Below are positions 21,401 through 40,165 of a stretch of 40,299 bases of DNA, one piece after another (position 1 is the first letter of the stretch; each line of letters starts with the position of its first letter). The stretch covers positions 1 to 40,299 of the forward strand of contig JAZDKY010000134.1 in the NCBI GenBank assembly GCA_043802525.1, in the 5' to 3' direction. Under the pieces are notes generated by a model. It did no database searches. It worked only from the letters and a program-made list of their open reading frames with translations, and was not told the DNA's origin. Position numbers and translations under genes: made by a program. Origin of the DNA: a bacterium (GTDB lineage Bacteria; Verrucomicrobiota; Kiritimatiellia; CAIVKH01).

Positions 21401-21565
21401 ATTCCGCGCATCCGGAAAGATATTCCCGATATGTGGAGACAATTACAAGCATTGACGAATGCAGCCGAATTGGCCACGTCGCCGGAAGTATTCATAAGCA
21501 AGTATCAGGATGCGCTTAACCAACTGGAAAGGGCTGTGGATGTCATCAGCCAGAAAGATCGATAG
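18416..21565 (+). CDS. Ser/Thr protein kinase. It has an N-terminal zinc ribbon, a Hanks kinase domain, a double zinc ribbon, a transmembrane helix and a long helical TPR-like C-terminal region.
   Basis: GTG start 8 nt after GGAGGAG. LGQGGFGSVWKA, HRDIKPENILL and DFGLA kinase motifs. CPSCAK..CESCG..CPECDR..CGGCG. Transmembrane segment VLLYKVGACALAIALVMANVAW. Confidence 0.9.
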   Translation: MVAKCSQCRAEIASGYRFCPSCGGSVDTEPSSPADPALQSMGDLRTRQDAPRLDSMGDLPTGATSGARQLTRERAGDVLRERYELLEELGQGGFGSVWKAQDRELGRIVAIKWLHHVTDKEGRRDEMALARFAQEAQLIAKLNHRNTVEIYDRFTDQGDPCIVMEHIEGGNLRQYLKSHGGKLKLDEAAKMIRGVAQGLACAHNSQLIHRDIKPENILLKPEDGELVPKIVDFGLARMESESELNTMGGLGTPFYMPPEQRRDAKLVDHRADIYALGKTFYYMITGDLPDTIDPDKIPSSAISDVILKCVKLSPQERFFSAGDFIEALDDALAGVSHKKEAMPAGDAAALNLCPSCAKPNPSESKFCESCGAGLTRQCPECDRQNSVHKTFCGGCGTDVAAFDKVQEGLASVKGLLAEKNWSRAIEEAEAVAGISFNRKKGLGLLAELNECGATARNAEKRIEELAHQIDKAETDGVAHETVLEMIKEYSSLEPRRNWESRVAALHTAIDDRDFEECCQRAMDAADKGQFSDAQETVLAYLTTYPDGRHADEAKTLVETELPDREARYAENQALASAEKALDAVDGSNHQKSIDKILRALAGCQQCIARYEARLQGNRLGDAIRKLTEARGEVEKELEFRSLESSVKDLILAKDYVAACLKCREFLSKNDHHKSEAATLRDKALELEENRKAAADAAARRKLRVLLYKVGACALAIALVMANVAWRNYRLGREYDHAIDSRNLQDAERLAKKRKLSAERQLLLDYLRSSDKAKYDYDRRFADISAALSVYGGDAWNRIQSKLAEAARGDLHEAPRLYAEAADEAKAVQTRYGKLITTRQHFEAKYTVDVVSTLQALAPEEAHRLSDLVESAANEKDIDRGLDLYRKADLELNQAIQIAVKQKSAEADASAARKAAESAYADVGSDKLLKNVTELREQVVSQLAEARAMYDKRDYDQAATSWQECSDLVNQISDRIREMKSRRLLFQQSLKNYEKDIPRIRKDIPDMWRQLQALTNAAELATSPEVFISKYQDALNQLERAVDVISQKDR

Positions 21566-23116: not shown

Positions 23117-25678
23117 ATGGACGAAAGCGTGAACAACAGGGAGACGGTTCGGGCAGAATCCGCCGGCCGACACGAGTTTGCGCTTGAAGCAGGAGACATT
23201 CTCGATCAGTACCGGATTCTCCGCCCGCTCGGCGCGGGCGGGATGGGCGAGGTGTACCTCGCTGAGAACGTCCACAACCACAAACGCTTCGCCCTGAAAG
23301 TCCTCCCCGCCGCGCTCGCGCGGGACCCCCAGTTCGTTGGCCGGTTCAAGGTCGAGTCGCGCGTCATGATGGACCTCGACCACCCGGGCATCGTGCGCGT
23401 CCACCACATTGGCGAAGCTCGAGGGCTCTATTACCTGACCATGGACTTCGTGGAGGGTCCCGACGGCGCGCCCTTTGATCTCGAAGACCTGCTGCGCGAG
23501 CAGGGAGGCAGGATCAAGGACGAAAAGGTCGTTCGGGAACTCGCTCTCCAAATATGTGACGCGCTGGACTATGCGCATCATTTCCGCGGTGAGGGCATTG
23601 TCCATCGTGACCTAAAGCCGGCGAACATCCTGCTGCCCGGAGGACAGAAGACAGAGGACGGAAGACAGATCACGGTCAGAATCAGCGATTTCGGCCTGGC
23701 GAAGGTGGTGGGCGATGCCTATCTGAAGAGCATCATCGAGCGGTCGGTCAGTCTTTCGATCGGCGGTGAAGTCTCTATGGGGGACGAAAAGACCGGAGAC
23801 GGAAGGCCGAAACATCAAAAGACCAGCACGCGGTCCATCCTCGGTACCTATGACTACATGAGTCCCGAGCAGAAGCTTGGCCTGCCCGTCGATGCCCGCA
23901 GCGATATCTACGCGCTGGGCATGATGCTGTACAAGATGCTGACAGGCCGGAAAGCCGAAGGCGCTTACCGGCGGCCCTCGCAACTCGGGTGCGGCAGGGC
24001 GTGGGACTCTGTAGTTGAGCGTTGCATCCAGCAGGCACCCGAAGACCGCTATGCATCGGTGGCGGTACTGCAGAGGGATATTGAAAAAACCACACGGACG
24101 ACACACCGCAGGGCAATCCTGTCACTTATTGGCATAGCTGCCGGTGTACTTCTGGCAGCAGGCTTCCATTTCTTCTTGAACACCTCTAGGTCAAACTTGA
24201 AGGAGTCTGTGACTCAACCTGAACATGGAGTTTCCGATGTATCACTTGGTAGCGCTGCGGATTTGAAGCCCCGTTCTGTCATCGCATCGGGTATTGTTTA
24301 CACTCAGCTTCCAGACGGATTTGTCATTGTTTCGGGCGGCTTGTACATCTCCACAGAGCCTTCCGGCGCGACGGTATCTGTGGACGGGTATGAAATTACA
24401 AATAGCCCCGCAACATTTCGCGACATGGCAGCCGGTTCGCAGATTGTTACGGTCAAACTGGCCGACTACGAGTCGCAAACATTCGACATCGATGTTCCTG
24501 AAGACGATTTTGCGAAGACCAATGTTGTCCTTGTCAGAAAAAAGGGCCTCATCGAAGTCACGAGCCGACCCGCAGGTGCCCAAGTCATGCAGGGATCCCG
24601 CGTGCTGGGTGAAACCCCGATGAGCGCTCGCCTGGAAGTGGGCCCACAAATTTTGACGATTCGCAAATATGGCTTCCGAGATGCTGACGTCCGCGCCGAC
24701 GTCACAGCTGACCTCAAGACGATCGTGTCCGAAGTGACTCTGACGTCAGAGCTCGGCGCTATCCGGATCACGGCACGACCCGCCTCGGGCGAGGGTAAGT
24801 ATTTTGATATTCTGGATAATCGAATCGAGCTTGGTTCCGCAGATCGCAAAATAGAGAACTCGTCCTTCCCGTGTGTGGTGACCGGACTTGCTGTCGGGGC
24901 TATTCAAGTCGCGGTCGCTGTAGACGGATACAAAACAGCAACAAATATGGTGACGGTCGCCGGTGGTCGCACGACGGATACCGAATTCGTACTCGCGCGG
25001 CTTGGTCCCGTTGACGGCGCCGACTGGTCCGTGCCGGGAAGTACGAACTTAACAAACGCTCAAGAGATGGCATATCAGGCTCAGACGAACGGGACAAATC
25101 CATCCTTGGCATCCTCTGTGCAGCTCGTTGCCGATGGGAAACTCCTATTGCGTCAAAACAAGCTTGCCGAGGCGGAGAAGATGTTCCAATCCGTCCTTGG
25201 CCAATCGCCCAACATGCTTGACGCGCGCATCGGCTTGGCGGCCTGCCGGTACAATGCGGGCGATCTGGACCAGGCGCAGCGACTCGTCGGTGACGTACTG
25301 GCCGTAGAAGCGAAGAACGCACAGGCGCTCGGCCTCATGGGTATCATTGCGTGGCGCGAGGGCCGGTACCGCGATGCCGTAGAGATACTCAGCGAGGCTG
25401 TCCGCGCCGACCCGACCGATGCGCAACTGCACAGCTACTTGGGCGTGGCGTTTCAGGCGCGCAAGCGGTACGCCGAAGCCACCCAAGAACTGCGGACTGC
25501 TGTAACGCTGGATCCCAACAACGCGGAGGCCCAGTACAATCTTTCCGTGGTCCTTGCTACGGCCCGCTCGCCTTTGTTGCAGGAAGCCAAGGCACACTAC
25601 GACCTCGCGCTGCAATTGGGGTACCCCCGGGACGACGCGATGGACAAGCTTTTATCAAGGATTCCGCAAGCACATTGA
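23117..25678 (+). CDS. Ser/Thr protein kinase with a transmembrane helix, extracytoplasmic PEGA-like domains and C-terminal TPR repeats.
   Basis: LGAGGMGEVYLA, HRDLKPANILL and DFGLAK. Transmembrane segment AILSLIGIAAGVLLAAGF. PEGA-like GAQVMQGSRVLGETPM..L..G. TPR-like repeats (AEAQYNLSVVLA...). Confidence 0.9.
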   Translation: MDESVNNRETVRAESAGRHEFALEAGDILDQYRILRPLGAGGMGEVYLAENVHNHKRFALKVLPAALARDPQFVGRFKVESRVMMDLDHPGIVRVHHIGEARGLYYLTMDFVEGPDGAPFDLEDLLREQGGRIKDEKVVRELALQICDALDYAHHFRGEGIVHRDLKPANILLPGGQKTEDGRQITVRISDFGLAKVVGDAYLKSIIERSVSLSIGGEVSMGDEKTGDGRPKHQKTSTRSILGTYDYMSPEQKLGLPVDARSDIYALGMMLYKMLTGRKAEGAYRRPSQLGCGRAWDSVVERCIQQAPEDRYASVAVLQRDIEKTTRTTHRRAILSLIGIAAGVLLAAGFHFFLNTSRSNLKESVTQPEHGVSDVSLGSAADLKPRSVIASGIVYTQLPDGFVIVSGGLYISTEPSGATVSVDGYEITNSPATFRDMAAGSQIVTVKLADYESQTFDIDVPEDDFAKTNVVLVRKKGLIEVTSRPAGAQVMQGSRVLGETPMSARLEVGPQILTIRKYGFRDADVRADVTADLKTIVSEVTLTSELGAIRITARPASGEGKYFDILDNRIELGSADRKIENSSFPCVVTGLAVGAIQVAVAVDGYKTATNMVTVAGGRTTDTEFVLARLGPVDGADWSVPGSTNLTNAQEMAYQAQTNGTNPSLASSVQLVADGKLLLRQNKLAEAEKMFQSVLGQSPNMLDARIGLAACRYNAGDLDQAQRLVGDVLAVEAKNAQALGLMGIIAWREGRYRDAVEILSEAVRADPTDAQLHSYLGVAFQARKRYAEATQELRTAVTLDPNNAEAQYNLSVVLATARSPLLQEAKAHYDLALQLGYPRDDAMDKLLSRIPQAH

Positions 25679-27261: not shown

Positions 27262-27276
27262 GAGACGGGGCAGAGG

Positions 27277-27316
27277 GCGGAGGACGGAAAGGCGGAGGAC
27301 GGAAGGCGGAGGACGG
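27277..27316 (+). repeat. Three tandem copies of the purine-rich motif GGCGGAGGACGGAA(A).
   Basis: Read from the sequence. A similar GGAGGACGG/GAAGACGG run occurs inside the AAA gene at 37942..37975. Confidence 0.6.
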
Positions 27317-27702: not shown

Positions 27703-30609
27703 ATGGACAAGTCCTTGGGCAGCCGGGATACCACGCCGCCGGATGATCCATCCGGCAGCGATGGCATCAAGAGCGTCGGCGACTGGCAGACGCTGCGGGC
27801 GATGGCCGGGCGGAAGCGGTTCAAGGCCGGGGAGATGATCCTTGGCCGGTACAAGGTCACCGGCGAACTGGGCCAGGGCGGGATGGGTGTCGTCTACCGC
27901 TGCTTCGACGAGGTCGGCGGGATCGACGTGGCGCTCAAGGCGCTGCCGCCCGAACTCTCGCACGATTCTTCGGAAATGGCGGAGGTACGCGAGAACTTCC
28001 AGCTCGTTTCGCGGCTGGTCCACACCAACATCGCCCAGATCCGCACCCTCGATAAGGACCCCGCCACGGGCGACTACTACCTCGTCATGGAGTGCGTGGA
28101 TGGGATCAACCTGCGCGACTACCGGAAGAAGCACGGCGGGAAACTGACGCTCGAACAGGTGATGCGGATCGCCCCGCAGGTGGCCGGGGCGCTCGACTAT
28201 GCGCACGGCCAGAAAATCATCCACAGGGACATCAAGCCCGCCAACGTGATGATCCGTGCCGACGGCACGGTGAAAGTGCTGGACTTCGGACTGGCCGCGC
28301 AGCTTCACACGTCCATGTCGCGGGTCAGCAAGGCCCATTACGGGACCAGCGGCACGGGCCCGTACATGGCGCCGGAGCAGTGGGAGGGCGACTACCAGGA
28401 CGCGGCGACGGATCAGTACGCGTTCGGTGCCTTGGTCTATGAGCTGCTGGCAGGGCGTTGTCCTTTCGAAAGCCACGACTCGGGCGTCCTGCGGCATGCC
28501 GTCCTGCACGGGAAGGCCAAACCGATCGACGGCGTGCCCGCACGGGAAATGGATGCGATCTTGCGCGCGCTGGCGAAGACGCGGGAGGATCGGTTTGCGG
28601 ATTGCGCGGAGTTTGTGGAGGCGCTGGGCGGGGGGAAGATTGAACCACGGAGGACACGGAGTAACGCGGAGGGGAAGAGGAGTGGGGTTCGTGGTTTGCG
28701 GTTGGGGGTTGGGGTGGTTCTGCTCGTGGCCCTTGGCTACGGGTCCCTTGTGTCCCTCAAGTCGCTTTCCGCGCGCCGCGCGGAGGAGCGCACCGCACAG
28801 GACGCCGCGGCGAAGCAGAACGACGCGTCAAAACAGCAGATTGCCCAACTCCAACAGGCCGTCGAGCAGGCACTGACGTCTGGCAATTTGAAGGCCGCGG
28901 GAGAGAGCCTGTCTGACTTGGAGGAACTGGGCGTGCAGATACCGGCCGTGCGTGATCTGAGAGCCCGATACGAAGCAGCCGCGGGCGCACAAGAAGTGAG
29001 GAAGCGGCAGGCAGAAGCGTCGCTGGAATACGAGGCGGCACAGAAACTCGAGCCTGGGCAGGGGTTGGAGAAGAAGCTGAAGGAACTGGAACTGGTCTGG
29101 CGAGAGGCGGAACAGGCGAAGAAGGACGAGGCGTGGGGGCCGGCGCTGACGTCGTACGACCATCTCCTGGGGAAGTGCCGGGAGCTTGGGGAATGGGATG
29201 CGGCGCGCAAAGGCGCGAAGGCGCAGGGCCGGAAGGCGGAAGGCGCAAGACAGTCGGCGTCGGGCAGGAACGCGGAGCGGGATGCCTTGGCGCTATGGAA
29301 TGGCGCGGCCTCGGCGGCCTCGGCCGCAGCGACGGCCTATGAGGCGGGTGATTTTGCGGGCGCTTCCAAGGGTTGGAAGGATGCTGAAGTGAAGTTCCAA
29401 TCTTCGGAGCAGAGGGCTGTCGCGGTGCAGGCATACGGGAAGGCGAAGGCGGACTACGATGCCGCGGCGTCGCGGGCGGACCGGGAACTGCTGGGGCAGT
29501 ACGCCGCAGGCAAGTGGAAGGAAGCCCAGCAGCAGGCCAGGACGGCGGAGCAGTCCGGGGACACGCCGGACGAGGGGCGCCGGGCGTACGAGGCCGCGCT
29601 GGCGGCCTTGGACGCGGCGGTCAAGGAGGCGGAGGAGAAGTCGATCCCGATCCTGAAGGTCACGGCGAAGGCCGACGGAGCAGATGTCAAAGCTACGGTC
29701 AGCGACGGCAAGAGCACGTGGATGACGCCGGTGGAGCTGAAACTGGCGAAGAACCAGTCCTATACGTTTCAAGTAACCTATGCGGGCGGCGGCAAGCGCT
29801 GGAAAGCGGTGCGCGACACCCGAACATCCGATTGGGTGGGCGTGAAGCAGTGGGCGGTGGCGCTGGAGGCGTCGCGAGGGCCCGAGCCGGGCCGGCCGTG
29901 GACGGTGCCGGAGCTGGGGATGGAGTTCGTGCCGGTGGAGGCGGGCAGCTTCCAGATGGGATCGGAAGACGGCCATAACGACGAGAAACCCGTACACGGC
30001 GTGAGGATCACGAAGCCGTTCTGGATGGGGAAATACGAGGTGACGCAGGAGGAGTACCGGAAGATCAGCGGTCAGGCGCCTTCCTACTTCAAGGGCGACC
30101 GGCTGCCTGTTGAGACGGTCAACTGGAACGAAGCCGTTGCGTTCTGCCGCAAACTGACCGAACAGGAGCAGGCGGCGGGGCGGTTGCCGGAAGGGTATGA
30201 ATACCGGTTGCCGACGGAGGCGGAATGGGAGTACGCGGCGCGCGGCGGGACCTTGAGTCGAGGGACGGGGTATGCGGGCGGCGACGATATTGACCGGGTG
30301 GCGTGGTATACGTCGAATAGCGGGAGTACGACGCATGAGGCGGGCACGAAAGCAGCCAATGAGTTGGGCCTCTACGACATGAGCGGGAACGTGTGGGAAT
30401 GGTGCCTGGACGCATATCAGGACAGCTATACGGGCGCTCCGGCGGATGGTTCGGAGCGTACTGGTTCCGGGGCCGTTTCGCGGGTTCTCCGTGGCGGGTC
30501 GTGGCCCGACGATGCGACGTACTGTCGCGTCGCCTACCGCCGCAGGAACGACCCGACGGACTCCTACTACTGCATTGGCTTTCGTGTTGTGTTGGGGGCG
30601 GTCCGTTGA
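27703..30609 (+). CDS. Transmembrane Ser/Thr protein kinase with a C-terminal extracytoplasmic FGE-sulfatase/C-type-lectin-fold domain carrying the DGR variable region. DGR target 1.
   Basis: LGQGGMGVVYRC, HRDIKPANVMI and DFGLAA. Transmembrane segment GVGVVLLVALGYGSLVSL. FGE domain (RLPTEAEWEYAARGG...GNVWEWCLDAY...RVLRGGSW...GFRVVL). VR1 lies at the 3' end. Confidence 0.9.
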   Translation: MDKSLGSRDTTPPDDPSGSDGIKSVGDWQTLRAMAGRKRFKAGEMILGRYKVTGELGQGGMGVVYRCFDEVGGIDVALKALPPELSHDSSEMAEVRENFQLVSRLVHTNIAQIRTLDKDPATGDYYLVMECVDGINLRDYRKKHGGKLTLEQVMRIAPQVAGALDYAHGQKIIHRDIKPANVMIRADGTVKVLDFGLAAQLHTSMSRVSKAHYGTSGTGPYMAPEQWEGDYQDAATDQYAFGALVYELLAGRCPFESHDSGVLRHAVLHGKAKPIDGVPAREMDAILRALAKTREDRFADCAEFVEALGGGKIEPRRTRSNAEGKRSGVRGLRLGVGVVLLVALGYGSLVSLKSLSARRAEERTAQDAAAKQNDASKQQIAQLQQAVEQALTSGNLKAAGESLSDLEELGVQIPAVRDLRARYEAAAGAQEVRKRQAEASLEYEAAQKLEPGQGLEKKLKELELVWREAEQAKKDEAWGPALTSYDHLLGKCRELGEWDAARKGAKAQGRKAEGARQSASGRNAERDALALWNGAASAASAAATAYEAGDFAGASKGWKDAEVKFQSSEQRAVAVQAYGKAKADYDAAASRADRELLGQYAAGKWKEAQQQARTAEQSGDTPDEGRRAYEAALAALDAAVKEAEEKSIPILKVTAKADGADVKATVSDGKSTWMTPVELKLAKNQSYTFQVTYAGGGKRWKAVRDTRTSDWVGVKQWAVALEASRGPEPGRPWTVPELGMEFVPVEAGSFQMGSEDGHNDEKPVHGVRITKPFWMGKYEVTQEEYRKISGQAPSYFKGDRLPVETVNWNEAVAFCRKLTEQEQAAGRLPEGYEYRLPTEAEWEYAARGGTLSRGTGYAGGDDIDRVAWYTSNSGSTTHEAGTKAANELGLYDMSGNVWEWCLDAYQDSYTGAPADGSERTGSGAVSRVLRGGSWPDDATYCRVAYRRRNDPTDSYYCIGFRVVLGAVR
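30470..30609 (+). repeat. DGR variable repeat VR1 (3' end of kinase-FGE gene 1).
   Basis: 140-nt alignment to TR1 shows 12 mismatches, all at TR adenines (examples: ggAAcAac to ggCCcGac; ccAaccgcAAc to ccTaccgcCGc; AAcAAcAAcAtt to TAcTAcTGcAtt). Confidence 0.9.
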
Positions 30610-30664
30610 GGAATGGGTATTGTACTGAGCTTCTGGGCTTCTGTGTTCTGAACTACTGTTTGAA

Positions 30665-30690
30665 AGCGCGCGGAGCGCGCTCGAATTTTT
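30665..30690 (+). terminator. GC hairpin (agcgcgc-gga-gcgcgct) followed by a T5 run, 56 nt downstream of VR1. It is a DGR target-recognition-type hairpin and/or an intrinsic terminator.
   Basis: Read from the sequence. The homologous position after VR2 has ccccgc-gaa-gcgggg. Confidence 0.5.
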
Positions 30691-30737
30691 CGGCTGTGTC
30701 GAAAGGGGGACCATGACACACGGGGGACGAAACGATA

Positions 30738-30877
30738 GGGCCGTTTCGCGGGTTCTCCGTGGCGGGTCGTGGAACAACGATGCGACGAACTGTCGCGTCG
30801 CCAACCGCAACAGGAACGACCCGACGAACTCCAACAACAACATTGGCTTTCGTGTTGTGTTGGGGGCGGTCCGTTGA
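30738..30877 (+). repeat. DGR template repeat TR1 (orphan). It is AAC-rich and translates in target frame as [42 protein letters not shown].
   Basis: Identical to VR1 except at 12 adenine positions. It is intergenic. The upstream gggggaccatgaca resembles the avd 3' end (gggggccgggacatgaca) found before TR2. Confidence 0.9.
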
Positions 30878-31045
30878 AGAATCGGACAGCCAGATACCGT
30901 GCGCTTCCCGCGAGAGCGGGTCGCCCGGTCCGTGCAAACCCATTCCAGTTTTGTCCTCCTGATCCCGCCGGCGAGCGGGGCGAAGACGCGGCGCGGGGCT
31001 GGGGCTGGTACCCTGAGGATCTCGAAGGGGAAAGCCCCGGCCCCG
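30878..31045 (+). ncRNA. Conserved structured RNA element 3' of TR1 (DGR spacer-like region). It includes the shared motif ccagatac and the conserved block aagacgcggcgcggggcYggggcYggtaccctgagg..tcgaRggggaaRgccccggc.
   Basis: The same roughly 60-nt block recurs downstream of TR2 (37607..37665). A C/U difference in the 5' strand preserves pairing (G-C versus G.U) with gccccggcccc. Confidence 0.55.
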
Positions 31046-31253
31046 CATGCTCCGCAGCGGGCACGGAATGGCTGCGCAGCACGACGGGCTATGACCGATC
31101 CGCTGGACATCGCCAAGAAGAATATTCCGCGGGCGGGCGACCGCAAGGGGGCATGACAACCCGGCCAGATTCGCGATATGATTGCATCTGAATGGTTCTT
31201 TATATGACGGTGGCGATGTTGATAAGTCTTGCTGGCAAGATGTTCCTTTCCCT

Positions 31254-31870
31254 ATGAAACCGCCCGACAACAGCCTCGGTGGTCAGTCGACAAATCCCGG
31301 CGCGGATCTGCCGGACGGCATCCATTCGATCGGCGACGTCCTGACGCAGCGCCAGCGGAAGCGGTTCAGGGCCGGGGACGTGCTGGCGGGGCGCTACAAG
31401 ATTCTCGGCGAACTCGGGCAGGGTGGGATGGGGTTGGTGTTCCGTTGCCTTGACGAGGTCGGCGGGATCGAGGTCGCCGTGAAGATGCTTCCTCCGGAAG
31501 TCTCGCGCGACACGGGCGAGATGGAGGAGGTCCGTGAGAATTTCCAACTGGTCGCGAAGCTCGCCCACCCGAACATCGCCACGGTCAGGACCTTGGAACG
31601 GGATCCTGCCACGGGCGAATACCTCCTCGTCATGGACAGCGCCGAGGGCGCCAGCCTGCGGAAGTGGCGAAAAGAAGGCGCAGGGGGCCGTCGCACGCTC
31701 GAAGAGATTCTGCCCGTCCTTGAACACGTGGCGTCGGCGCTGGATTACGCGCACGGGCGCAAGGTCGTCCACCGGGATATCAAGCCCTCCAATATCTCAT
31801 GTGGCGCGGGGCACGTGGTTGGAGGTTAGGGCTTGGTGTGGCCGTGATCCTTGCGCTGGGCTGGTGGGGA
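31254..31870 (+). pseudogene. Truncated paralogue of the kinase-FGE gene. It keeps the kinase N-terminal half (near-identical to 33066..33610) and is then internally deleted to a fragment of the transmembrane region.
   Basis: MKPPDNSLGGQSTNPGADLPDGIHSIGDV...HRDIKPSNI, then SCGAGHVVGG*. The downstream ggcttggtgtggccgtgatccttgcgctgggctggtgggg matches the transmembrane-coding segment at about 34061. Confidence 0.75.
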
Positions 31871-33065: not shown

Positions 33066-35864
33066 ATGACACCGCCCGATAACAGCCTCGGTGGTCAGTC
33101 GACGAATCCCGGCGCGGACCTGCCGGACGGCATCCACTCCATCGGCGACGTCCTGACGCAGCGCCAGCGCAAGCGGTTCAGGGCCGGGGACGTGCTGGCG
33201 GGGCGCTACAAGATTCTCGGCGAACTCGGACAGGGCGGGATGGGGTTGGTGTTCCGCTGCCTTGACGAGGTCGGCGGGATCGAGGTCGCCGTGAAGATGC
33301 TTCCTCCGGAAGTCTCGCGAGACACGGGCGAGATGGAGGAGGTCCGTGAGAATTTCCAACTGGTCGCGAAGCTCGCCCACCCGAGCATCGCCACGGTCAG
33401 GACCTTGGAACGGGACCCTGCCACGGGCGAATACCTCCTCGTCATGGACAGCGCCGAGGGCGTCAGCCTGCGGAAGTGGCGAAAAGAAGGCGCAGGGGGC
33501 CGTCGCACGCTCGCAGAGATTCTGCCCGTCCTTGAACATGTGGCGTCGGCGCTGGATTACGCGCACGGGCGCAAAGTCGTCCACCGTGACATCAAGCCCT
33601 CCAATATCATGGTGTCGCCCGACGGCACGGTCAACGTGTTGGACTTCGGCTTGGCGGCGCAGATCCACACATCGTTTTCCCGCGTCTCGCAAACGAAATA
33701 TGGGACGAGCGGGACGGGCCCGTACATGGCGCCGGAACAGTGGCGCGGGGAATACCAGGACGCGAAGACCGATCAGTATGCGCTGGGGGTGATGACGTAC
33801 GAATTGCTGGCGGGGCGGCTGCCGTTCGAGAGTCATGATGCGTCGGTCTTGAAACAGGCTGTGTTGGACCATGAGCCGACGCCCATCGCGGGGTTGGACC
33901 CTGCTGCGATGGCGGTGCTCCGCCGCGCGTTGGCGAAGAAGCGTGAAGAAAGGTTTGCAAGCTGTGCGGAGTTTGTGGAGGCGCTGGGGGGTGGGAAGAT
34001 TTCACCGCAGAGGACGCCGAGGAACGCAGAGGGAAGGAGGAGTAGATTCGGGGGTTTGTGGTTGGGGGTTGGTGTGGCCGTGATCCTCGTCCTGGGCTGG
34101 TGGGGATGGATGGTATGGCGCCAGGGAAGTGCGCCTGAGGAACAGTCTGCGCGGGTGTCTGCGCAGACGAAGCCGAATACGGCCGCTGAACAGCCAGATG
34201 GGCAAGCGAGCCAAGCGCAGCCGATAACCCTCGAAGATCTGGATAAGTTAGACTTCAGCCCGATAGTCACCCTACCGACATCAGTACGCAATGGCGCCGC
34301 GTACATTGCAACCGACCCGGCGGGGGCGGCGGTTGCGATAGGAGCGGCAGGGAAGACTGCGCCGGCTGAGTTCCTCAATCTTCCTGCGGGCGTGTGTACG
34401 GCGCGGGTATCGCTTTCGGGCTACTACGACACGAGTGTCCTACTCCTCGTCACCGGGGACCGGTTCACCAAAACGAACGTCGTCCTGCGCCGCCACAGCG
34501 GGAAAGTCCGGCTGTCCAGTACGCCAACCGAGGCGGAAATATGGCGGGACGGGCAGAGGCTGGGCATGACGCCCGAGATTCTCGGACCCTTCCCAGCCGA
34601 GTCGATCGTGTTCGAGTTGAAGAAGCCGGGTTACCGCCCGGCGACCGTCACCGTGGAGGTCCGGAAGGACGAAGCCACCGACCGTACCGCGAGCCTCGAA
34701 AAGGCGTCCGGCTGGCTTCGCGTTGTGGCGCAAGGAAGGCCTGCTGGTGAAGCGGGCGAATTGGAGATCGACGGCCGGAGCGTGGGCGTCGTCAAGCTCC
34801 CCTACGTCGCGGGCCCGTTCGATCCCGCGAAGGTCAAGGTGCGCTTCGTCGGCGCAGGCGGCGCGTCGGCGGAGGCCGCAGCCTCCGTGGAGGACACCAG
34901 AACCAACGTGGTCACGCTGGTCTTCGAGGCGCAGCCGAGGGATGGCGAAGACTGGACCGTCAAGAACTTGGGCATGCTGGTGAAGTGGATCCCGGCGGGC
35001 ACGTTCATGATGGGCAGCACGCCGGAGGAACGGGCGTGGGCCGCCGGGTCGGAGGGCAAGGGGCAGAAGGAATGGTTTGCCGGTGAAGGCGATCAGCCGC
35101 GGAGCACGAAGGTGGATCCGGGTTTCTGGTTGGGACAGACCGAGGTCACGCGGGGTCAGTGGAAACAGTTCATGGCAGACAATCCCTCGTTTCGAACCGA
35201 TGCGGAGAAAAGCGGCCAGGCATGGTGCCTTGACATCAAAGGCGACAAGCAATGGAAGCTCATGAAGGGTAAGAGCTGGCGGGATCCGAACTTCGAGCAG
35301 GACGATACGCACCCGGTTGTGTGCATATCGTGGAACGACGCGACCGCCTTCTGCGCTTGGCTGACTCGTAAGGAACGGGACGGCGGCCGCCTCCCGGAGA
35401 GCCTGGTTTACCGCCTTCCATCAGAGGCGGAATGGGAGTATGCCTGCAGAGCGCAAAAGGAGCAGACGCGGTTCTGGTGGGGAGACGCTGTGATGGACGG
35501 AGAAGGGCGAGTGAACGTGGGGGGGACGGAAAAGATGCCGAATGGAACCACTTGGAGCGTGAGCTTCTCGTTTGACGATGGCTGGCCCTACACGGCCCCG
35601 GTGGACAGCTATGGGACCAGAGGGCGCAATGGCTTTGGTTTGGCGGATATGCTGGGCAACGTCTGGGAGTGGTGCCTCGACGGCTGGTCGGAGCAGGGCG
35701 CGCAGGTCCAGGTATACAAGGCCGATGCTTCGCGGCGCGTTGTGCGGGGCGGGTCGTTCAACTTTCAACCCGGTGGCGTCCGTTGCGCGTATCGCGCCAG
35801 GACCGATCCTTCGCTTCCGGACGGCGGCGATGGCTTTCGGGTTGGTCTGGGTGTTTCCCGCTGA
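33066..35864 (+). CDS. Transmembrane Ser/Thr protein kinase with a C-terminal extracytoplasmic FGE-sulfatase/C-type-lectin-fold domain carrying VR2. DGR target 2.
   Basis: LGQGGMGLVFRC, HRDIKPSNIMV and DFGLAA. Transmembrane segment LWLGVGVAVILVLGWWGW. FGE domain (RLPSEAEWEYACRA...GNVWEWCLDGW...RVVRGGSF...GFRVGL). Confidence 0.9.
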   Translation: MTPPDNSLGGQSTNPGADLPDGIHSIGDVLTQRQRKRFRAGDVLAGRYKILGELGQGGMGLVFRCLDEVGGIEVAVKMLPPEVSRDTGEMEEVRENFQLVAKLAHPSIATVRTLERDPATGEYLLVMDSAEGVSLRKWRKEGAGGRRTLAEILPVLEHVASALDYAHGRKVVHRDIKPSNIMVSPDGTVNVLDFGLAAQIHTSFSRVSQTKYGTSGTGPYMAPEQWRGEYQDAKTDQYALGVMTYELLAGRLPFESHDASVLKQAVLDHEPTPIAGLDPAAMAVLRRALAKKREERFASCAEFVEALGGGKISPQRTPRNAEGRRSRFGGLWLGVGVAVILVLGWWGWMVWRQGSAPEEQSARVSAQTKPNTAAEQPDGQASQAQPITLEDLDKLDFSPIVTLPTSVRNGAAYIATDPAGAAVAIGAAGKTAPAEFLNLPAGVCTARVSLSGYYDTSVLLLVTGDRFTKTNVVLRRHSGKVRLSSTPTEAEIWRDGQRLGMTPEILGPFPAESIVFELKKPGYRPATVTVEVRKDEATDRTASLEKASGWLRVVAQGRPAGEAGELEIDGRSVGVVKLPYVAGPFDPAKVKVRFVGAGGASAEAAASVEDTRTNVVTLVFEAQPRDGEDWTVKNLGMLVKWIPAGTFMMGSTPEERAWAAGSEGKGQKEWFAGEGDQPRSTKVDPGFWLGQTEVTRGQWKQFMADNPSFRTDAEKSGQAWCLDIKGDKQWKLMKGKSWRDPNFEQDDTHPVVCISWNDATAFCAWLTRKERDGGRLPESLVYRLPSEAEWEYACRAQKEQTRFWWGDAVMDGEGRVNVGGTEKMPNGTTWSVSFSFDDGWPYTAPVDSYGTRGRNGFGLADMLGNVWEWCLDGWSEQGAQVQVYKADASRRVVRGGSFNFQPGGVRCAYRARTDPSLPDGGDGFRVGLGVSR

Positions 35865-35867
35865 GGC
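35729..35867 (+). repeat. DGR variable repeat VR2.
   Basis: 139-nt alignment to TR2 shows 16 mismatches, all at TR adenines (examples: cAAtcaa to cTTtcaa; tAAcgtAcgAtg to tGGcgtCcgTtg; AtcgAAtccgA to TtcgCTtccgG; cAgcAAcAAtgg to cGgcGGcGAtgg). Confidence 0.9.
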
Positions 35868-35926
35868 ATGGTAGTTGTTCTGTGTCCTGAGCTTCTGGGT
35901 TCTGGTTTCTGAGGTTCTGAAAACTA

Positions 35927-35941
35927 ACCCCGCGAAGCGGG
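35927..35941 (+). promoter_or_regulatory. GC hairpin with a GAA triloop (ccccgc-gaa-gcgggg), 60 nt downstream of VR2 and just upstream of the RT start. DGR target-recognition-type hairpin.
   Basis: Read from the sequence. The segment between VR and hairpin (ctgagcttctggg.ttctg.gtt.ctga) is conserved with the VR1-downstream region. Confidence 0.5.
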
Positions 35942-35952
35942 GCCGAAAATGT

Positions 35953-37014
35953 ATGGCCGTAACCTTCAAGCATCTGTACGCGCAGGTCTGGGACTTCGAA
36001 AACCTGTGGCTGGCTTATCAGAAGGCCCGCCGGGGCAAACGGTATGACGAGCCTGTGGCGAGGTTCGACAGCAACGCGGAGGAGAATATTCTCCAGCTAC
36101 AGTCGGAACTGCGCGACCGCTGCTGGACACCCGGGCCGTACCGCCACTTCTACGTTTGGGAGCCCAAGAAGCGAAGGATATCCGCCGCGCCGTTCCGCGA
36201 CCGCGTTGTGCACCACGCCCTAGTGAACGTGCTGGAGCCGATCTATGAAGCGCGATTCAGCGGTTCTTCGTATGCCTGCAGGAAAGGGAAGGGCACACTG
36301 GCGGCGATGCTCAAGGCGCATTGGGGCGTCCGCAACTGCGCGTGGTTCCTCAAGGGCGATATCGTGAAATTCTTTCCCTCTGTGGATCACGAGGTGCTCC
36401 TGAGCGTTCTCCAGAGGAAGATCGCGGACGTCGATGTCCTGGCGATGATTCGCGTCATCCTCGATTCCGGGCGGGGTGTCTTTGATGATGAGCGGCCGCC
36501 GATGTGGTTCGCGGGCGACGACCTGCTTGCGCCCGCGCTCCGGCCCAAAGGGCTTCCGATCGGCAACCTGACCAGCCAGTTCTTTGCAAACGTCCTTCTC
36601 AACGAACTCGACCAGTTTGTGCACACCCGACTTTCGCCGCGCCTCTATGTCCGCTACAGCGACGACTTCGTGCTTTTCGATCACGACCGCGGCAAGGTGG
36701 AGCCCGTGCGCGGTCCGATCGAGGAGTGCCTTGAGTCGCTGCGCCTGAGGATGCATCCGGGCAAGTCCCATCTTCGGCCTTCCCGGCAGGGGCTCCGGTT
36801 CCTGGGTTTCCGGCTTCTTCCGTCGACGCGAAGGGTGGCTCGCGAAAACCTGACGCGTTTCCGGCGACGTATGCGGACGTGCGGGCATCTGCGGAGGGGA
36901 AATCGAATAACCGTCGCGCGCGTGGGCGCATCCGTGCGTGGCTGGTTGAGTCACGTGGACCATGCGAATGCGTCCGCCGTCACAAGGAGGTTGTTGTCCG
37001 ATGTCCGGTTCTGA
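35953..37014 (+). CDS. Diversity-generating retroelement reverse transcriptase.
   Basis: The hallmark DGR RT motif IGNLTSQFFANVLLNELD is present, as is RYSDDFVLF (catalytic YxDD) and the N-terminal FENLWLAYQKARRGKRYD. The gene sits between a VR and a TR. The in-frame upstream extension to 35875 is unlikely. Confidence 0.9.
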   Translation: MAVTFKHLYAQVWDFENLWLAYQKARRGKRYDEPVARFDSNAEENILQLQSELRDRCWTPGPYRHFYVWEPKKRRISAAPFRDRVVHHALVNVLEPIYEARFSGSSYACRKGKGTLAAMLKAHWGVRNCAWFLKGDIVKFFPSVDHEVLLSVLQRKIADVDVLAMIRVILDSGRGVFDDERPPMWFAGDDLLAPALRPKGLPIGNLTSQFFANVLLNELDQFVHTRLSPRLYVRYSDDFVLFDHDRGKVEPVRGPIEECLESLRLRMHPGKSHLRPSRQGLRFLGFRLLPSTRRVARENLTRFRRRMRTCGHLRRGNRITVARVGASVRGWLSHVDHANASAVTRRLLSDVRF

Positions 37015-37354
37015 TCGCGCGGAATCCCCGCTATTCGTCAAGACAAGGGACTTCATGGGCTGGCTGTTCCAGCACACGGCCAAGTTCCCCAAGGTCTACC
37101 GGCATACGCTGACAAACCGATTGGAAGAAAGTATGCTGGATTTTCATCGCTGTCTTGGTGTCGCCGCGTTGACGGGCGATGAGGTAGCCCTCGCACGTGC
37201 GGACGTCGAGCTGTGGCAACTGCGCCAGCTTCTCCGCTTGGCAAACGACATGGGATTCTTCCCCGCTCGCCTGATGGAGTACAGCGCCCCACGGCTCGCA
37301 GAGCTCGGGAGCCTGCTTGGCGGGTGGCGGAGGAAGACGGGGGCCGGGACATGA
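37001..37354 (+). CDS. avd: Avd-like accessory variability determinant (small basic four-helix-bundle protein). It overlaps the RT 3' end.
   Basis: AGGAGG RBS 10 nt upstream. About 117 aa. ...AKFPKVYRHTLTNRLEESMLD...LAELGSLLGGWRRK resembles Bordetella phage Avd / TIGR02436-type proteins. It lies immediately upstream of TR2. Confidence 0.7.
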   Translation: MSGSDRAESPLFVKTRDFMGWLFQHTAKFPKVYRHTLTNRLEESMLDFHRCLGVAALTGDEVALARADVELWQLRQLLRLANDMGFFPARLMEYSAPRLAELGSLLGGWRRKTGAGT

Positions 37355-37361
37355 CAGCGGC

Positions 37362-37500
37362 GTTCGCGGCGCGTTGTGCGGGGCGGGTCGTTCAACAATC
37401 AACCCGGTAACGTACGATGCGCGTATCGCGACAGGAACGATCCATCGAATCCGAACAGCAACAATGGCTTTCGGGTTGGTCTGGGTGTTTCCCGCTGAGG
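37362..37500 (+). repeat. DGR template repeat TR2. It is AAC-rich and translates in target frame as RVVRGGSFNNQPGNVRCAYRDRNDPSNPNSNNGFRVGLGVSR.
   Basis: Identical to VR2 except at 16 adenines. It starts 8 nt after the avd stop. Confidence 0.9.
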
Positions 37501-37665
37501 CGTCGAACTGCCAGATACGGCAAGCCCGCGGCTGCGCCGCGATCCTGCCGTCCGAGCACCTCCATGCCCGTCCCGGCATCCGGATCGCGCCCCTTTGGGC
37601 GCGACAAAGACGCGGCGCGGGGCCGGGGCCGGTACCCTGAGGTTGTCGAGGGGGAAGGCCCCGGC
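37501..37665 (+). ncRNA. Conserved structured RNA element 3' of TR2 (DGR spacer-like region). It is homologous to 30878..31045.
   Basis: Shared ccagatac and the block aagacgcggcgcggggccggggccggtaccctgaggttgtcgagggggaaggccccggc. Stem gccggggcc/ggccccggc. Confidence 0.55.
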
Positions 37666-37718
37666 GTCGCATTCCGAGGCGGGGTTGTGCAGCATGTACG
37701 GCGAGTAAGGAGGTTCTC

Positions 37719-38870
37719 ATGAGTTTTCTCCTCGAAAAGAAACTGGAGCACGAGAGCCTGTGCGAGTCTGACATTCGGGCGGGCCGCGTCGGGAATGCCG
37801 TTTTCCACGCGGCGAAGGCCGCCGAATTCGCGTACGCCCTGGCCGCGCAGACGGCCGGCAACATCGGCCAGCGCTATATTGAGGATGCGGAGGGGTGGTT
37901 GGAGATCGCGGAGAGGCTGCGGACCAGGCCCCCTGTTTCCCGGAAGACGGAGGACGGAGGACGGAAGACGGAGGGAAAGGGGCAGAGGACGAAGGATGAC
38001 GAGCAGGGGCCGGATGATGACTGGCTGGTGACCGAAAAGCCCAATGTCACGTTCGACATGATCGCGGGGATGGCAGAGGCGAAGCAGTCGATCATGGAGA
38101 TGGTGGTGCTGCCGCTCAAATCGCCCGAGAAGGCGAAGGCACTGGGACTGCGGGCCGGCGGCGGCGTGCTGCTATATGGCCCTCCCGGCAATGGCAAGAC
38201 CCTTCTCGGCAAGGCGGTGGCCAGCCAGCTCGACGCGCCGTTCTACTACGCGTCGGGCGCCCAGATACGGTCCAAGTGGCACGGAGAATCCGAGCAGCGG
38301 CTGCGCAAGCTCATCCAGTCCGCGAAGCAGCAATCCGTTGCCGTTCTTTTCCTGGACGAAGTCGACGGACTGCTCCCGAAACGCGGCGGAAATTCCGTCG
38401 TCGATAACCGCTTGGTGACGCAGTTCCTTGCGGAAATCGGCGGGTTCGAGGAATCCGACAATGTGCTCCTGGTCCTTGGGGCGACCAACAAGCCTTGGGA
38501 GATTGACGAAGCCGTTTTCCGGACCGGCCGATTCGACGAAAAGATCTATGTGGGCCTTCCTGACGATCCGGCCCGGCTTGGCATCCTGCACATGCACCTG
38601 GACAAGGTCCCGCTCGGGCCGGACTTCGATTTCGAGAAATGGGCGAAACGGATCGAGGGCTATACGGGAAGCGACATTGTCGGCGTCGTCAACGATGCCA
38701 AGAGATCCGCGCTCAGCAGGAGCATCCGTGAAGAGGGCGATCCGCAACTGACGAATGCCGATCTGGAGGCTGCCTTCAAGACGATACCGTCGTCCGTCAC
38801 ACCGCAACTGCTTCAGCGGTACGAGCAATTCAAGCAGGCACGGTTTGGCCAGCCAAAGGACGTGGCCTGA
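37719..38870 (+). CDS. Vps4-like (meiotic-clade) AAA+ ATPase. It has an N-terminal MIT-like helical domain, a low-complexity linker, an AAA domain and a Vps4-type C-terminal helix.
   Basis: AAGGAGG RBS. Walker A GPPGNGKT, Walker B LFLDEVD. SKWHGESEQRLRKL and LVLGATNKPWEIDEAVFRTGRFDEKIYVGLPD parallel Vps4 SKWLGESEKLVKNL and [30 protein letters not shown]. C-terminal TIPSSVTPQLLQRYEQFKQARFGQ parallels Vps4 [24 protein letters not shown]. Confidence 0.75.
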   Translation: MSFLLEKKLEHESLCESDIRAGRVGNAVFHAAKAAEFAYALAAQTAGNIGQRYIEDAEGWLEIAERLRTRPPVSRKTEDGGRKTEGKGQRTKDDEQGPDDDWLVTEKPNVTFDMIAGMAEAKQSIMEMVVLPLKSPEKAKALGLRAGGGVLLYGPPGNGKTLLGKAVASQLDAPFYYASGAQIRSKWHGESEQRLRKLIQSAKQQSVAVLFLDEVDGLLPKRGGNSVVDNRLVTQFLAEIGGFEESDNVLLVLGATNKPWEIDEAVFRTGRFDEKIYVGLPDDPARLGILHMHLDKVPLGPDFDFEKWAKRIEGYTGSDIVGVVNDAKRSALSRSIREEGDPQLTNADLEAAFKTIPSSVTPQLLQRYEQFKQARFGQPKDVA

Positions 38871-40025: not shown

Positions 40026-40165
40026 CCCTCCCAAGGCGGGCAGGCCCTCCCAAGGCGGGCAGGCCCTCCCAAGGCGGGCAGGCCCTCCCAAGGCGGGCAG
40101 GCCCTCCCAAGGCGGGCAGGCCCTCCCAAGGCGGGCAGGCCCTCCGAAGGCGGGCGGGCCTGGTC
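40026..40165. repeat. Minisatellite: a 19-bp unit (caaggcgggcaggccctcc) in six perfect tandem copies, with a degenerate partial copy on each side.
   Basis: caagg recurs every 19 nt from 40032 to 40127. There are no spacers, so this is not a CRISPR array. Confidence 0.85.

Follow-up and report, generated by a model that had tools for sequence, protein, structure and literature searches.

How can one reverse transcriptase serve two template repeats, one of which lies apart from any reverse transcriptase gene, and why is each repeat followed by nearly the same block of about 60 nucleotides? These questions are raised by a 40,299-nt stretch of DNA from a bacterium of the Kiritimatiellia (contig JAZDKY010000134.1, assembly GCA_043802525.1), hereafter called the window, whose 3′ third is occupied by a diversity-generating retroelement (DGR). 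The window carries a bona fide DGR with one pair of reverse transcriptase (RT) and Avd genes and two pairs of template repeat (TR) and variable repeat (VR). An earlier reading of the letters alone, here the original prediction, had taken the block for a structured, selected RNA of the DGR spacer type, and this interpretation is supported by our analysis. We consider it very probable that each TR sits in its own copy of the DGR RNA scaffold that RT-Avd needs to self-prime and to copy the TR. One of the repeats, TR1, has no RT or Avd gene adjoining it, and it is therefore presumably served in trans by the RT-Avd pair beside TR2. The genes and repeats of the locus are as follows.

27703..30609, + strand: target gene 1, a Ser/Thr kinase with an FGE-sulfatase/C-type-lectin-like domain (Pfam Pkinase and FGE-sulfatase)
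30470-30617, + strand: VR1, a repeat with TR1 at 91% identity
30738-30885, + strand: TR1, an orphan template repeat that starts 128 nt 3′ of target gene 1
33066..35864, + strand: target gene 2, a kinase with a PEGA and an FGE-sulfatase domain (Pfam)
35729-35867, + strand: VR2, a repeat with TR2
35875..37014, + strand: the DGR reverse transcriptase (Pfam RVT_1)
36962..37354, + strand: Avd, bAvd-like (Pfam bAvd PF22296, E = 5e-13, 49.8 bits against a cut-off of 40)
37363..37501, + strand: TR2, a repeat with VR2

The mismatches between the repeats fall at TR adenines in 13 of 14 cases for TR1/VR1 and in 16 of 16 for TR2/VR2. Both VRs overlap the stop codons of their target genes, and the FGE-sulfatase domains reach residues 963 of 968 and 926 of 932 in the two target proteins. 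The second cassette has the gene order VR-RT-Avd-TR, and the RT-Avd pair is also present in all close relatives. The RT is 100% identical to a database protein (P0001) of 353 aa, so that its true start lies later in the open reading frame (ORF) 35875..37014. Reverse transcriptases of the DGR clade carry [I/L/V]GxxxSQ in place of QGxxxSP, and the motif of this RT, IGNLTSQ, is invariant in its clade (33-sequence alignment A2).

The block of about 60 nt was found after both TRs. A repeat search (D10) pairs 30975-31048 with 37599-37672 at 85% identity, and the second copy, which the original prediction had placed at 37501..37665, was confirmed. The block proper spans 30980-31046 and 37604-37670, where the copies are 85% identical against 37% beyond it, and it consists of a single strand, GCGAAGACGCGGC in copy 1, and a 54-nt hairpin that we call P4.

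30980..30992, + strand: single strand, copy 1, GCGAAGACGCGGC, proposed to hold A-minor adenosines and a thumb-ring equivalent
37604-37616, + strand: single strand, copy 2, ACAAAGACGCGGC
30993..31046, + strand: hairpin P4, copy 1, with an outer stem of 14 bp, GGUA (31007-31010) facing GAA (31030-31032) in the internal loop, and an inner stem-loop; 82.8 bits with covariance model (CM) R1
37617..37670, + strand: hairpin P4, copy 2, with GGUA at 37631-37634 and GAA at 37654-37656; 77.8 bits with CM R1

Identity between the two copies is 85% in P4 and 85% in the single strand before it, 79% in the post-TR stretch GAAGAAUCG..GCCAGAUAC, 65% in the strands named below as primer and Stop strands, 63% in the TRs and 42% in the stem-loop P1, and beyond 31047 it is at the background level of 37%. 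The need of both RNAs to dock on a common RT is our proposed reason for the block being the most conserved part. The flanks of the TRs had been described as otherwise unrelated, which proved wrong, as one architecture is common to the entire flank of about 170 nt and to the 13 nt that precede each TR. A ccagatac motif is indeed common to both flanks (GCCAGATAC, 30889-30897 and 37510-37518), but it does not directly abut the TR as had been thought, since it begins 4 nt (copy 1) and 9 nt (copy 2) past the end of the VR/TR homology.

The evidence that the block is a selected RNA comes from its relatives, because two copies alone are insufficient to prove selection. RT relatives in the clade share 55-69% identity, and the contigs of twelve of them were taken; all are arranged as target-RT-Avd, followed by a TR and then a non-coding stretch. 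Seven loci and the two window copies gave nine distinct sequences for model building, and the full covariation set comprised 14 sequences from 13 related DGRs, including both window copies. The same P4 hairpin is folded by all nine sequences of the first set, in which 94.9% of positions pair, against at most 56% when the partner strand is slid; 10 of the 18 pairs show compensatory changes, and 0 of 500 shuffles reach the observed values. Pairing remains at 94.3% in the 14 sequences, and RNAalifold independently returned the same helices. The inner stem measures 4 bp (MAFFT alignment A3, 9 sequences), and the internal loop GGUA/GAA is invariant, with AGUA/GAA in some relatives. Thermodynamic folding gave a stable hairpin in both copies (-47.0 kcal/mol, z = -3.6, and -45.1 kcal/mol, z = -4.0), which none of 200 shuffles matched. 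The original prediction had read the two U/C differences in the stem as exchanges between G.U and G-C pairs; the first is indeed U.G versus C-G, whereas the second is a full compensatory change, with U 31006 opposite A 31033 in copy 1 and C 37630 opposite G 37657 in copy 2. Selection on RNA structure, which had been claimed from the two copies, is borne out by the compensatory changes across the 14 sequences, 12 of them from related DGRs, and by the independent RNAalifold predictions.

One could suppose that the block has no function of its own and is what slow decay has left of a recently duplicated TR cassette. The cassettes are clearly paralogous, and the stretch 31254-31553 matches the 5′ end of target gene 2 (33066-33365; repeat-search pair D3) at 96% identity over 300 nt, which points to a recent rearrangement of the region. 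However, within the same duplication the block is 85% conserved while the TRs are at 63% and P1 at 42%, the differences between the copies are compensatory, and the element occurs in 12 further distinct sequences whose RTs are only 55-69% identical to that of the window. By this conservation profile and by the relatives, a neutral duplication remnant is excluded, and we give it next to no credence.

It has also to be considered whether the block acts as DNA, for instance as a cruciform in target recognition, or belongs to a small protein-coding gene. Phage BPP-1 of Bordetella uses a DNA hairpin in target recognition (PMC5703328), gene callers put ORFs over the TR and the spacer in some relatives, and in the window the ORFs 30899-31156 and 37417-37722 overlap the block. 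However, a target-recognition hairpin belongs after the VR and not after the TR, and P4 is absent after both VRs, where a different GC-rich hairpin stands. Many G.U pairs of P4 would be A.C mismatches on the minus strand, and therefore the structure is strand-specific, functional as the + strand, and acts as RNA. Substitutions between the copies fall on all three codon positions with no consistent preference, the loops of homologues differ in length by non-multiples of 3, and a conserved reading frame across homologues was not seen in the alignments; the block appears to be non-coding. Both versions of this explanation are highly implausible in our view, the block being far better described as part of a structured RNA.

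CM R1, built from the nine sequences, matches only the two sites in the window. Outside it, the model found the element beside the TRs of related DGRs, in five of five held-out loci, with 50-62 bits and about 215-260 nt 3′ of the avd stop codon. More distant DGR RTs (41-50% identity) have weak matches 3′ of them, on the same strand and in consistent positions, with the GUA...GAA loop kept. The gain in distant loci from an iterated model, R2, was small (about 12 of 83); almost all of them lie 3′ of the RT on the + strand. In the distant DGR locus L078, an R2 match of 26.9 bits (512-579) precedes the RT by about 3.4 kb, and it could be the scaffold of an orphan TR like TR1. A search of genome contigs with the single RT gave only 3 distant relatives, and RTs of 41-50% identity were among the matches listed in a search of metagenome contigs with the RT alignment. 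No Rfam family exists for the scaffold: the whole window had no Rfam match at gathering thresholds, and the region at permissive thresholds gave matches at chance level only (mir-940, E = 0.95; sot2652, E = 0.057). In one related locus (L088, 3477-3893) a Y1 transposase gene of the IS200/IS605 type stands between target and RT, and the scaffold 3′ of it is unchanged.

The block is not isolated, and the remaining parts of the flank form further helices, one of which reaches back across the TR.

30721..30733, + strand: 5′ strand of the Stop duplex, copy 1, CGGGGGACGAAAC, non-coding, aligning column for column with the last avd codons of copy 2
37338-37350, + strand: 5′ strand of the Stop duplex, copy 2, in the last avd codons
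30879..30885 (copy 1) and 37500-37506 (copy 2), + strand: template strand, the 3′ end of the TR, which pairs with the primer strand
30889..30935, + strand: post-TR segment, copy 1, made up of GCCAGAU, the P1 stem-loop and a conserved CCGUGC
30896-30903 / 30922-30929, + strand: P1 stem, copy 1, with a GAGA-capped inner helix
37510-37516 and 37517-37551, + strand: GCCAGAU and P1, copy 2
30938..30946, + strand: primer strand, copy 1, ACCCAUUCC, partner of the TR 3′ end, placed 1-2 nt ahead of the Stop strand
30939-30946 (copy 1) and 37561-37568 (copy 2), + strand: priming strand, CCCAUUCC and UCCAUGCC
30948..30960, + strand: 3′ strand of the Stop duplex, copy 1, GUUUUGUCCUCCU
37570-37582, + strand: 3′ strand of the Stop duplex, copy 2
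30964..30979, + strand: hairpin P3, copy 1, CCCGC-CGGCGA-GCGGG
37586-37603, + strand: hairpin P3, copy 2

These helices were followed in trimmed-core alignments from which the TR interior and the variable loops had been removed (A4 with 9 sequences and A7 with 14). The Stop duplex has 13 bp, is 93.4% paired in the 14 sequences (A4/A7 columns 7-19 with 95-107) and shows compensatory changes at 9 of its 13 pairs, such as GAAAC/GUUUU, GGGAC/GUCCC and GGAAC/GUUCC. Only in copy 1 is its upstream strand non-coding; copy 2 and all relatives have it within the final codons of avd. In the template-primer duplex, the TR 3′ end GAAU-C-GG faces CC-C-AUUC (30879-30885 with 30939-30945); its six pairs are 97.6% paired, three of them compensatory (A7 columns 32-38 with 86-92, 14 sequences). 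P1 is an 8-bp stem, 94.6% paired with 6 of 8 pairs compensatory in the 14 sequences, in which its flanks GCCAGAA and CCGAGC are conserved. Taken jointly, the three helices are 95.5% paired in nine sequences and 94.7% in 14, with 18 of 27 pairs compensatory, at most 49% pairing in the slid control and 0 of 500 shuffles at the observed values, and RNAalifold independently predicts all three. A hairpin of varying sequence and length stands at the P3 site in all nine sequences, although in one locus (L095) the segment forms three hairpins and not one. It is followed by an invariant GCGAAGAC, AAGACGC of the single strand being invariant too (alignment A3), and the exact 12-mer AAGACGCGGCGC is found 3′ of Avd and TR in 6 of 7 distinct loci, L094 and L095 having near variants. 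Unconstrained minimum free energy folds of the full 336- and 343-nt RNAs (30715-31050 for copy 1) recover the Stop duplex, P1, P3 and P4. When the whole 183-185-nt flank is folded alone, the z-scores are weak (-0.8 and -1.6) because half of its helices pair with sequence outside the flank.

From this arrangement we infer how the RNA may work. The scaffold would be a cis-acting RNA bound by the RT-Avd complex, and it is composed of eight elements. The first is the 13-nt strand just upstream of the TR (avd codons in copy 2, a non-coding relic in copy 1) and the second the TR itself, followed by GCCAGAU with stem-loop P1, which would bind Avd. The fourth, the primer strand (CCAUUCC or CCAUGCC), pairs with the last TR nucleotides and would give the priming nucleotide, and the fifth pairs back to the first, which would close the TR loop and set the end point of the cDNA (the Stop duplex). 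After the P3 hairpin as the sixth element, the single strand GCGAAGACGCGGC would supply the A-minor adenosines and wrap the RT thumb, and P4 with its GGUA/GAA internal loop would be the RT-binding stem-loop. Conservation, the covarying helices, the succession of elements and the DGR hallmarks are observed, whereas the protein bound by each element, the chemistry and exact nucleotide of priming and the use of the RT in trans are drawn by analogy from BPP-1. The original prediction had taken the block for the equivalent of the spacer region that primes cDNA synthesis; taken whole, the region 30878-31046 corresponds to the BPP-1 spacer, which supplies the primer, but the 60-nt block is not the priming site; the primer strand lies about 45 nt upstream of it and is less conserved.

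The comparison with BPP-1 is based on the cryo-electron microscopy structure of bRT-Avd with RNA (Handa et al., bioRxiv 10.1101/2023.10.23.563531) and on Handa et al. 2018 (PMC6182149). Our numbering of the BPP-1 sequence reproduces most of the named residues (A56, G57, C58, U63, A80, A81, U3, G4, U7), with the exception that the residue given as Sp C92 is a G at position 92 in our count, with C at 91. In that structure (bioRxiv 10.1101/2023.10.23.563531) the spacer (Sp) begins with a stem-loop (Sp 3-33) that binds the Avd pentamer. Its primer strand (Sp 47-56), paired with TR 117-129, is separated by two linker nucleotides from the Stop strand (Sp 59-70), which forms the cPRT Stop duplex with the final codons of avd. 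Further 3′ come a short hairpin (Sp 71-78), the GAA that supplies two A-minor adenosines (Sp 79-81), the thumb ring, which is single-stranded (Sp 82-94), and a long stem-loop with interior loops (Sp 95-139), which binds RT and is essential. The cDNA is primed from the 2′-OH of Sp A56, yielding a covalent RNA-cDNA molecule, and compensatory substitutions in the avd:Sp duplex gave no rescue (bioRxiv 10.1101/2023.10.23.563531).

The order of the elements is the same in the two systems and their spacing is similar: an avd-end strand, a post-TR stem-loop, a TR:Sp duplex, a Stop strand and a small hairpin, which is then followed by GCGAA, a single strand of about 10 nt and a long terminal hairpin with an asymmetric internal loop. 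In both, the template-primer duplex ends 1-2 nt from the Stop strand (compare Sp A56), and the lengths are comparable, about 165 nt here and 140 nt in BPP-1. A short string is also shared, UCCUGC-UUCG-GCGAACACG in BPP-1 corresponding to UCCUG-P3-GCGAAGACG here (UCCUG..hairpin..GCGAA.ACG), so that GC-UUCG-GC-GAA-CACG stands in BPP-1 at the site of P3 and GCGAAGAC. By position and shape, we propose that the conserved block is the counterpart of the A-minor and thumb-ring strand together with the RT-binding stem-loop, and that P1, which holds the position of the Avd-binding stem-loop of BPP-1, may bind Avd. Nevertheless, there are clear differences. Beyond the short string no sequence homology is detectable, and the link to the BPP-1 RNA is architectural and not sequence-based. 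The gene order is VR-RT-Avd-TR-Sp here and VR-Avd-TR-Sp-RT in BPP-1; P4 has one GGUA/GAA loop and a variable inner stem, whereas the BPP-1 hairpin has two interior loops and a heptaloop; P3 varies up to about 60 nt, whereas BPP-1 has an 8-nt UUCG hairpin; the candidate priming nucleotide is C here and A in BPP-1; and two scaffolds exist per RT-Avd here, one with its avd strand as a non-coding relic. The P4 loop, as GGUA/GAA or AGUA/GAA, also carries two of the four sequence signatures derived for the sarcin-ricin (bulged-G or loop E) motif (PMC1865062), in the same strand orientation; the resemblance is at the sequence level only, and the RT-binding hairpin of BPP-1 is not described as containing this motif.

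The terminal position of P4 suggests another role, namely that its main place is at the 3′ end of the template RNA, in protection, termination or processing, and not as a docking site for the RT. No structured element of the scaffold follows P4, whose GC content and stability (-45 to -47 kcal/mol) are very high, and conservation falls to background directly after it. However, P4 has no U-tract on its 3′ side and is not called by the terminator scan, a plain stability hairpin needs neither an invariant GGUA/GAA loop nor an invariant 13-nt single strand ahead of it, the 85% identity of P4 between the copies is more than the stem alone requires, and the hairpin at the same position in BPP-1 binds RT and is essential (bioRxiv 10.1101/2023.10.23.563531). 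We therefore regard this role as an improbable main function of P4 and prefer RT docking, with which it is not mutually exclusive; a 3′-end role is possible as an additional one.

Several points weigh against the scaffold as proposed here. The CM of P4 did not detect the BPP-1 Sp, its best match there being 12.8 bits on the wrong strand, and therefore the equation of P4 with the RT-binding stem-loop rests on position and shape. The template-primer duplex is more thinly supported than the other helices, with only three compensatory pairs and few variable positions, and its terminal pair is broken in one relative (L110). Whereas BPP-1 primes from an adenosine, no conserved adenosine takes this place here, and the best candidates for the priming nucleotide are cytidines. 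The trimmed-core helices were first spotted by eye on nine of these sequences, and the slid-partner control is thereby inflated; the compensatory counts and the held-out loci are not, and the five held-out loci and RNAalifold lessen this bias without removing it. Past the stop codon of target gene 1 and ahead of TR1 there is a terminator-like hairpin with a T-run at 30665-30690 (AGCGCGCGGAGCGCGCT CGAATTTTT), so that the TR1 RNA would need read-through or a promoter of its own, and no promoter for it was found. Service of TR1 in trans assumes a single RT, a count that holds within the 40-kb window, and a second RT elsewhere in the genome is possible. Finally, the evidence for the scaffold here is comparative, being drawn from sequences and predicted folds.

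How would the cDNAs made on two such scaffolds find the proper genes? The sequence directly after each VR offers a clue.

30610..30618, + strand: VR1 3′ flank, GGAATGGGT, directly after the stop codon; a perfect complement of Sp1 30938-30946, resembling an initiation of mutagenic homing (IMH) address
35865-35871, + strand: VR2 3′ flank, GGCATGG, complementary to Sp2 37562-37568

In 11 cassettes, the 3′ flank of the VR and the cognate primer strand are perfectly complementary, with runs of 9, 7, 9, 8, 8, 11, 4, 9, 7, 11 and 9 nt and a median of 9 nt. The TR counterparts have runs of 0-5 nt and two fixed mismatches, an A.C at the duplex end and a C.C inside; that of VR1, AGAATCGGA, has a perfect run of 0 with the primer strand. 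The VR flank tracks lineage-specific changes of the primer strand, and 0 of 20000 permutations of the cassettes reach the observed value. The two cassettes of the window differ in the same manner, CCAUUCC going with GGAATGG after VR1 and CCAUGCC with GGCATGG after VR2. This complementarity independently identifies CCAUUCC as the primer strand. In BPP-1, likewise, the VR UGACCACCU is a perfect complement of Sp 48-56 AGGUGGUCA, while the TR has UGCCCAUCA; Naorem et al. (2017) noted this complementarity and proposed that pairing of primer and IMH sets the direction of homing (PMC5703328). The comparative pattern of the VR flanks supports this idea. We tentatively suggest, as a possibility that we hold to be somewhat less than even, that the primer strand is also an RNA address for homing, by which a single RT-Avd could direct two RNA-linked cDNAs each to a different gene and neither of them back to the TRs. 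If true, the covariation would give the primer-IMH pairing model, proposed for BPP-1 on the basis of one sequence (PMC5703328), its first comparative support, and the address would be directly reprogrammable.

From the end of the duplex and the start of the VR complementarity, C30945/C30946 and C37567/C37568 are predicted to be the priming nucleotides. Two other readings were rejected. A conserved adenosine is not available as primer, the A at A4 column 94 being C in copy 2 and the invariant A of column 89 being internal to the duplex; and the difference of VR1 at TR1 A30878 is not a product of adenine mutagenesis that would mark the start of the cDNA, since this position is G in 10 of 11 VRs and is thus a fixed VR/TR difference.

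The sequences beyond the VRs have a common layout. GGAATGG, the complement of the primer strand, follows every VR in the clade (window 30610-30692 and 35865-35945, L084 3873-4000, L092, L094, L095, L097 and L099; alignment A6). It is followed by an array whose 5-8 units recur every 8 nt and end in CUG, as in GCTTCTGG GCTTCTGT GTTCTGAA (TRF reports 35877-35919), and then by a GC-rich hairpin with a 4-nt loop (30665-30681 and, as CCCCGCGAAGCGGGG, at about 35928-35942). Together these may form a target-recognition element comparable to the IMH and DNA stem-loop of BPP-1.

To our knowledge, the DGR RNA of the Bordetella phage is the only one dissected experimentally. The kind of element described here, a DGR RNA scaffold, is already known, and DGRs with more than one TR have been reported, for example in Stenotrophomonas sp. 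SKA14 (PMC6642488). As presumably here, one RT serves two TR/VR pairs in those DGRs; however, the reports list TRs only, whereas in the window each TR has a complete set of cis elements and its own pair of primer strand and VR flank. Avd-binding stem-loops and cPRT Stop duplexes were also predicted in 207 of 278 surveyed DGRs by single-sequence folding of 40 nt upstream and 100 nt downstream of the TR (bioRxiv 10.1101/2023.10.23.563531). A stretch of 100 nt does not reach the distal hairpin and single-sequence folding provides no test of covariation, whereas here all helices, the distal P4 included, are backed by compensatory changes. Four points are new: in a clade whose sequences are unrelated to BPP-1, the scaffold is complete and backed by covariation; its distal hairpin carries a GGUA/GAA loop; one RT-Avd is shared by two scaffolds; and there is comparative evidence for pairing of primer and VR.

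A second, sequence-unrelated scaffold shows which features of BPP-1 are general, namely the Stop duplex, the primer duplex, the hairpin with GCGAA and the distal RT hairpin, and which are free to vary. Paralogous scaffolds that share one RT-Avd are a natural experiment, in which the residues identical in both are candidate protein contacts. A CM, either of P4 or of the entire scaffold, would show where template RNAs truly end on the 3′ side and find orphan TRs without an adjoining RT, and the covariation between VR flank and primer strand is a testable handle on how the cDNA finds its target, the least understood step of DGRs. The scaffold may also aid the engineering of mutagenesis systems based on DGRs.

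The neighbourhood of the DGR contains one further gene directly 3′ of the TR2 scaffold.

37719-38870: AAA ATPase with an AAA_lid_3 domain (Pfam)

In a related locus (L095, 5661-7062) an AAA ATPase gene, preceded by a weak Snf7-like gene, also stands 3′ of the DGR. Ser/Thr kinase genes are unusually many in the region, five including a fragment, two of them being the DGR targets, and the same region holds an FHA-domain protein and an SPFH/double-zinc-ribbon protein; the coordinates listed for it are 13864-15405, 18416-21565, 23117-25678, 27703-30609, 31182-31829 and 33066-35864. The truncated kinase ORF at 31182-31829 lies directly 3′ of the TR1 scaffold, and the 96%-identical duplicate of the 5′ end of target gene 2 mentioned above is evidence of what was probably a recent segmental duplication or rearrangement between the cassettes. 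Short tandem repeats rich in GGA/GAC (GGCGGAGGACGGAAA, CGGAGGA) occur at 27269-27316, upstream of target gene 1, and matching repeats occur at 37941-38021 inside the 5′ part of the AAA ATPase gene, the two sites being paired in the repeat search (D16, D19). Near the contig end, at 40026-40160, there is a tandem array of 7.1 copies of the 19-nt unit CCCTCCCAAGGCGGGCAGG with 98% matches.

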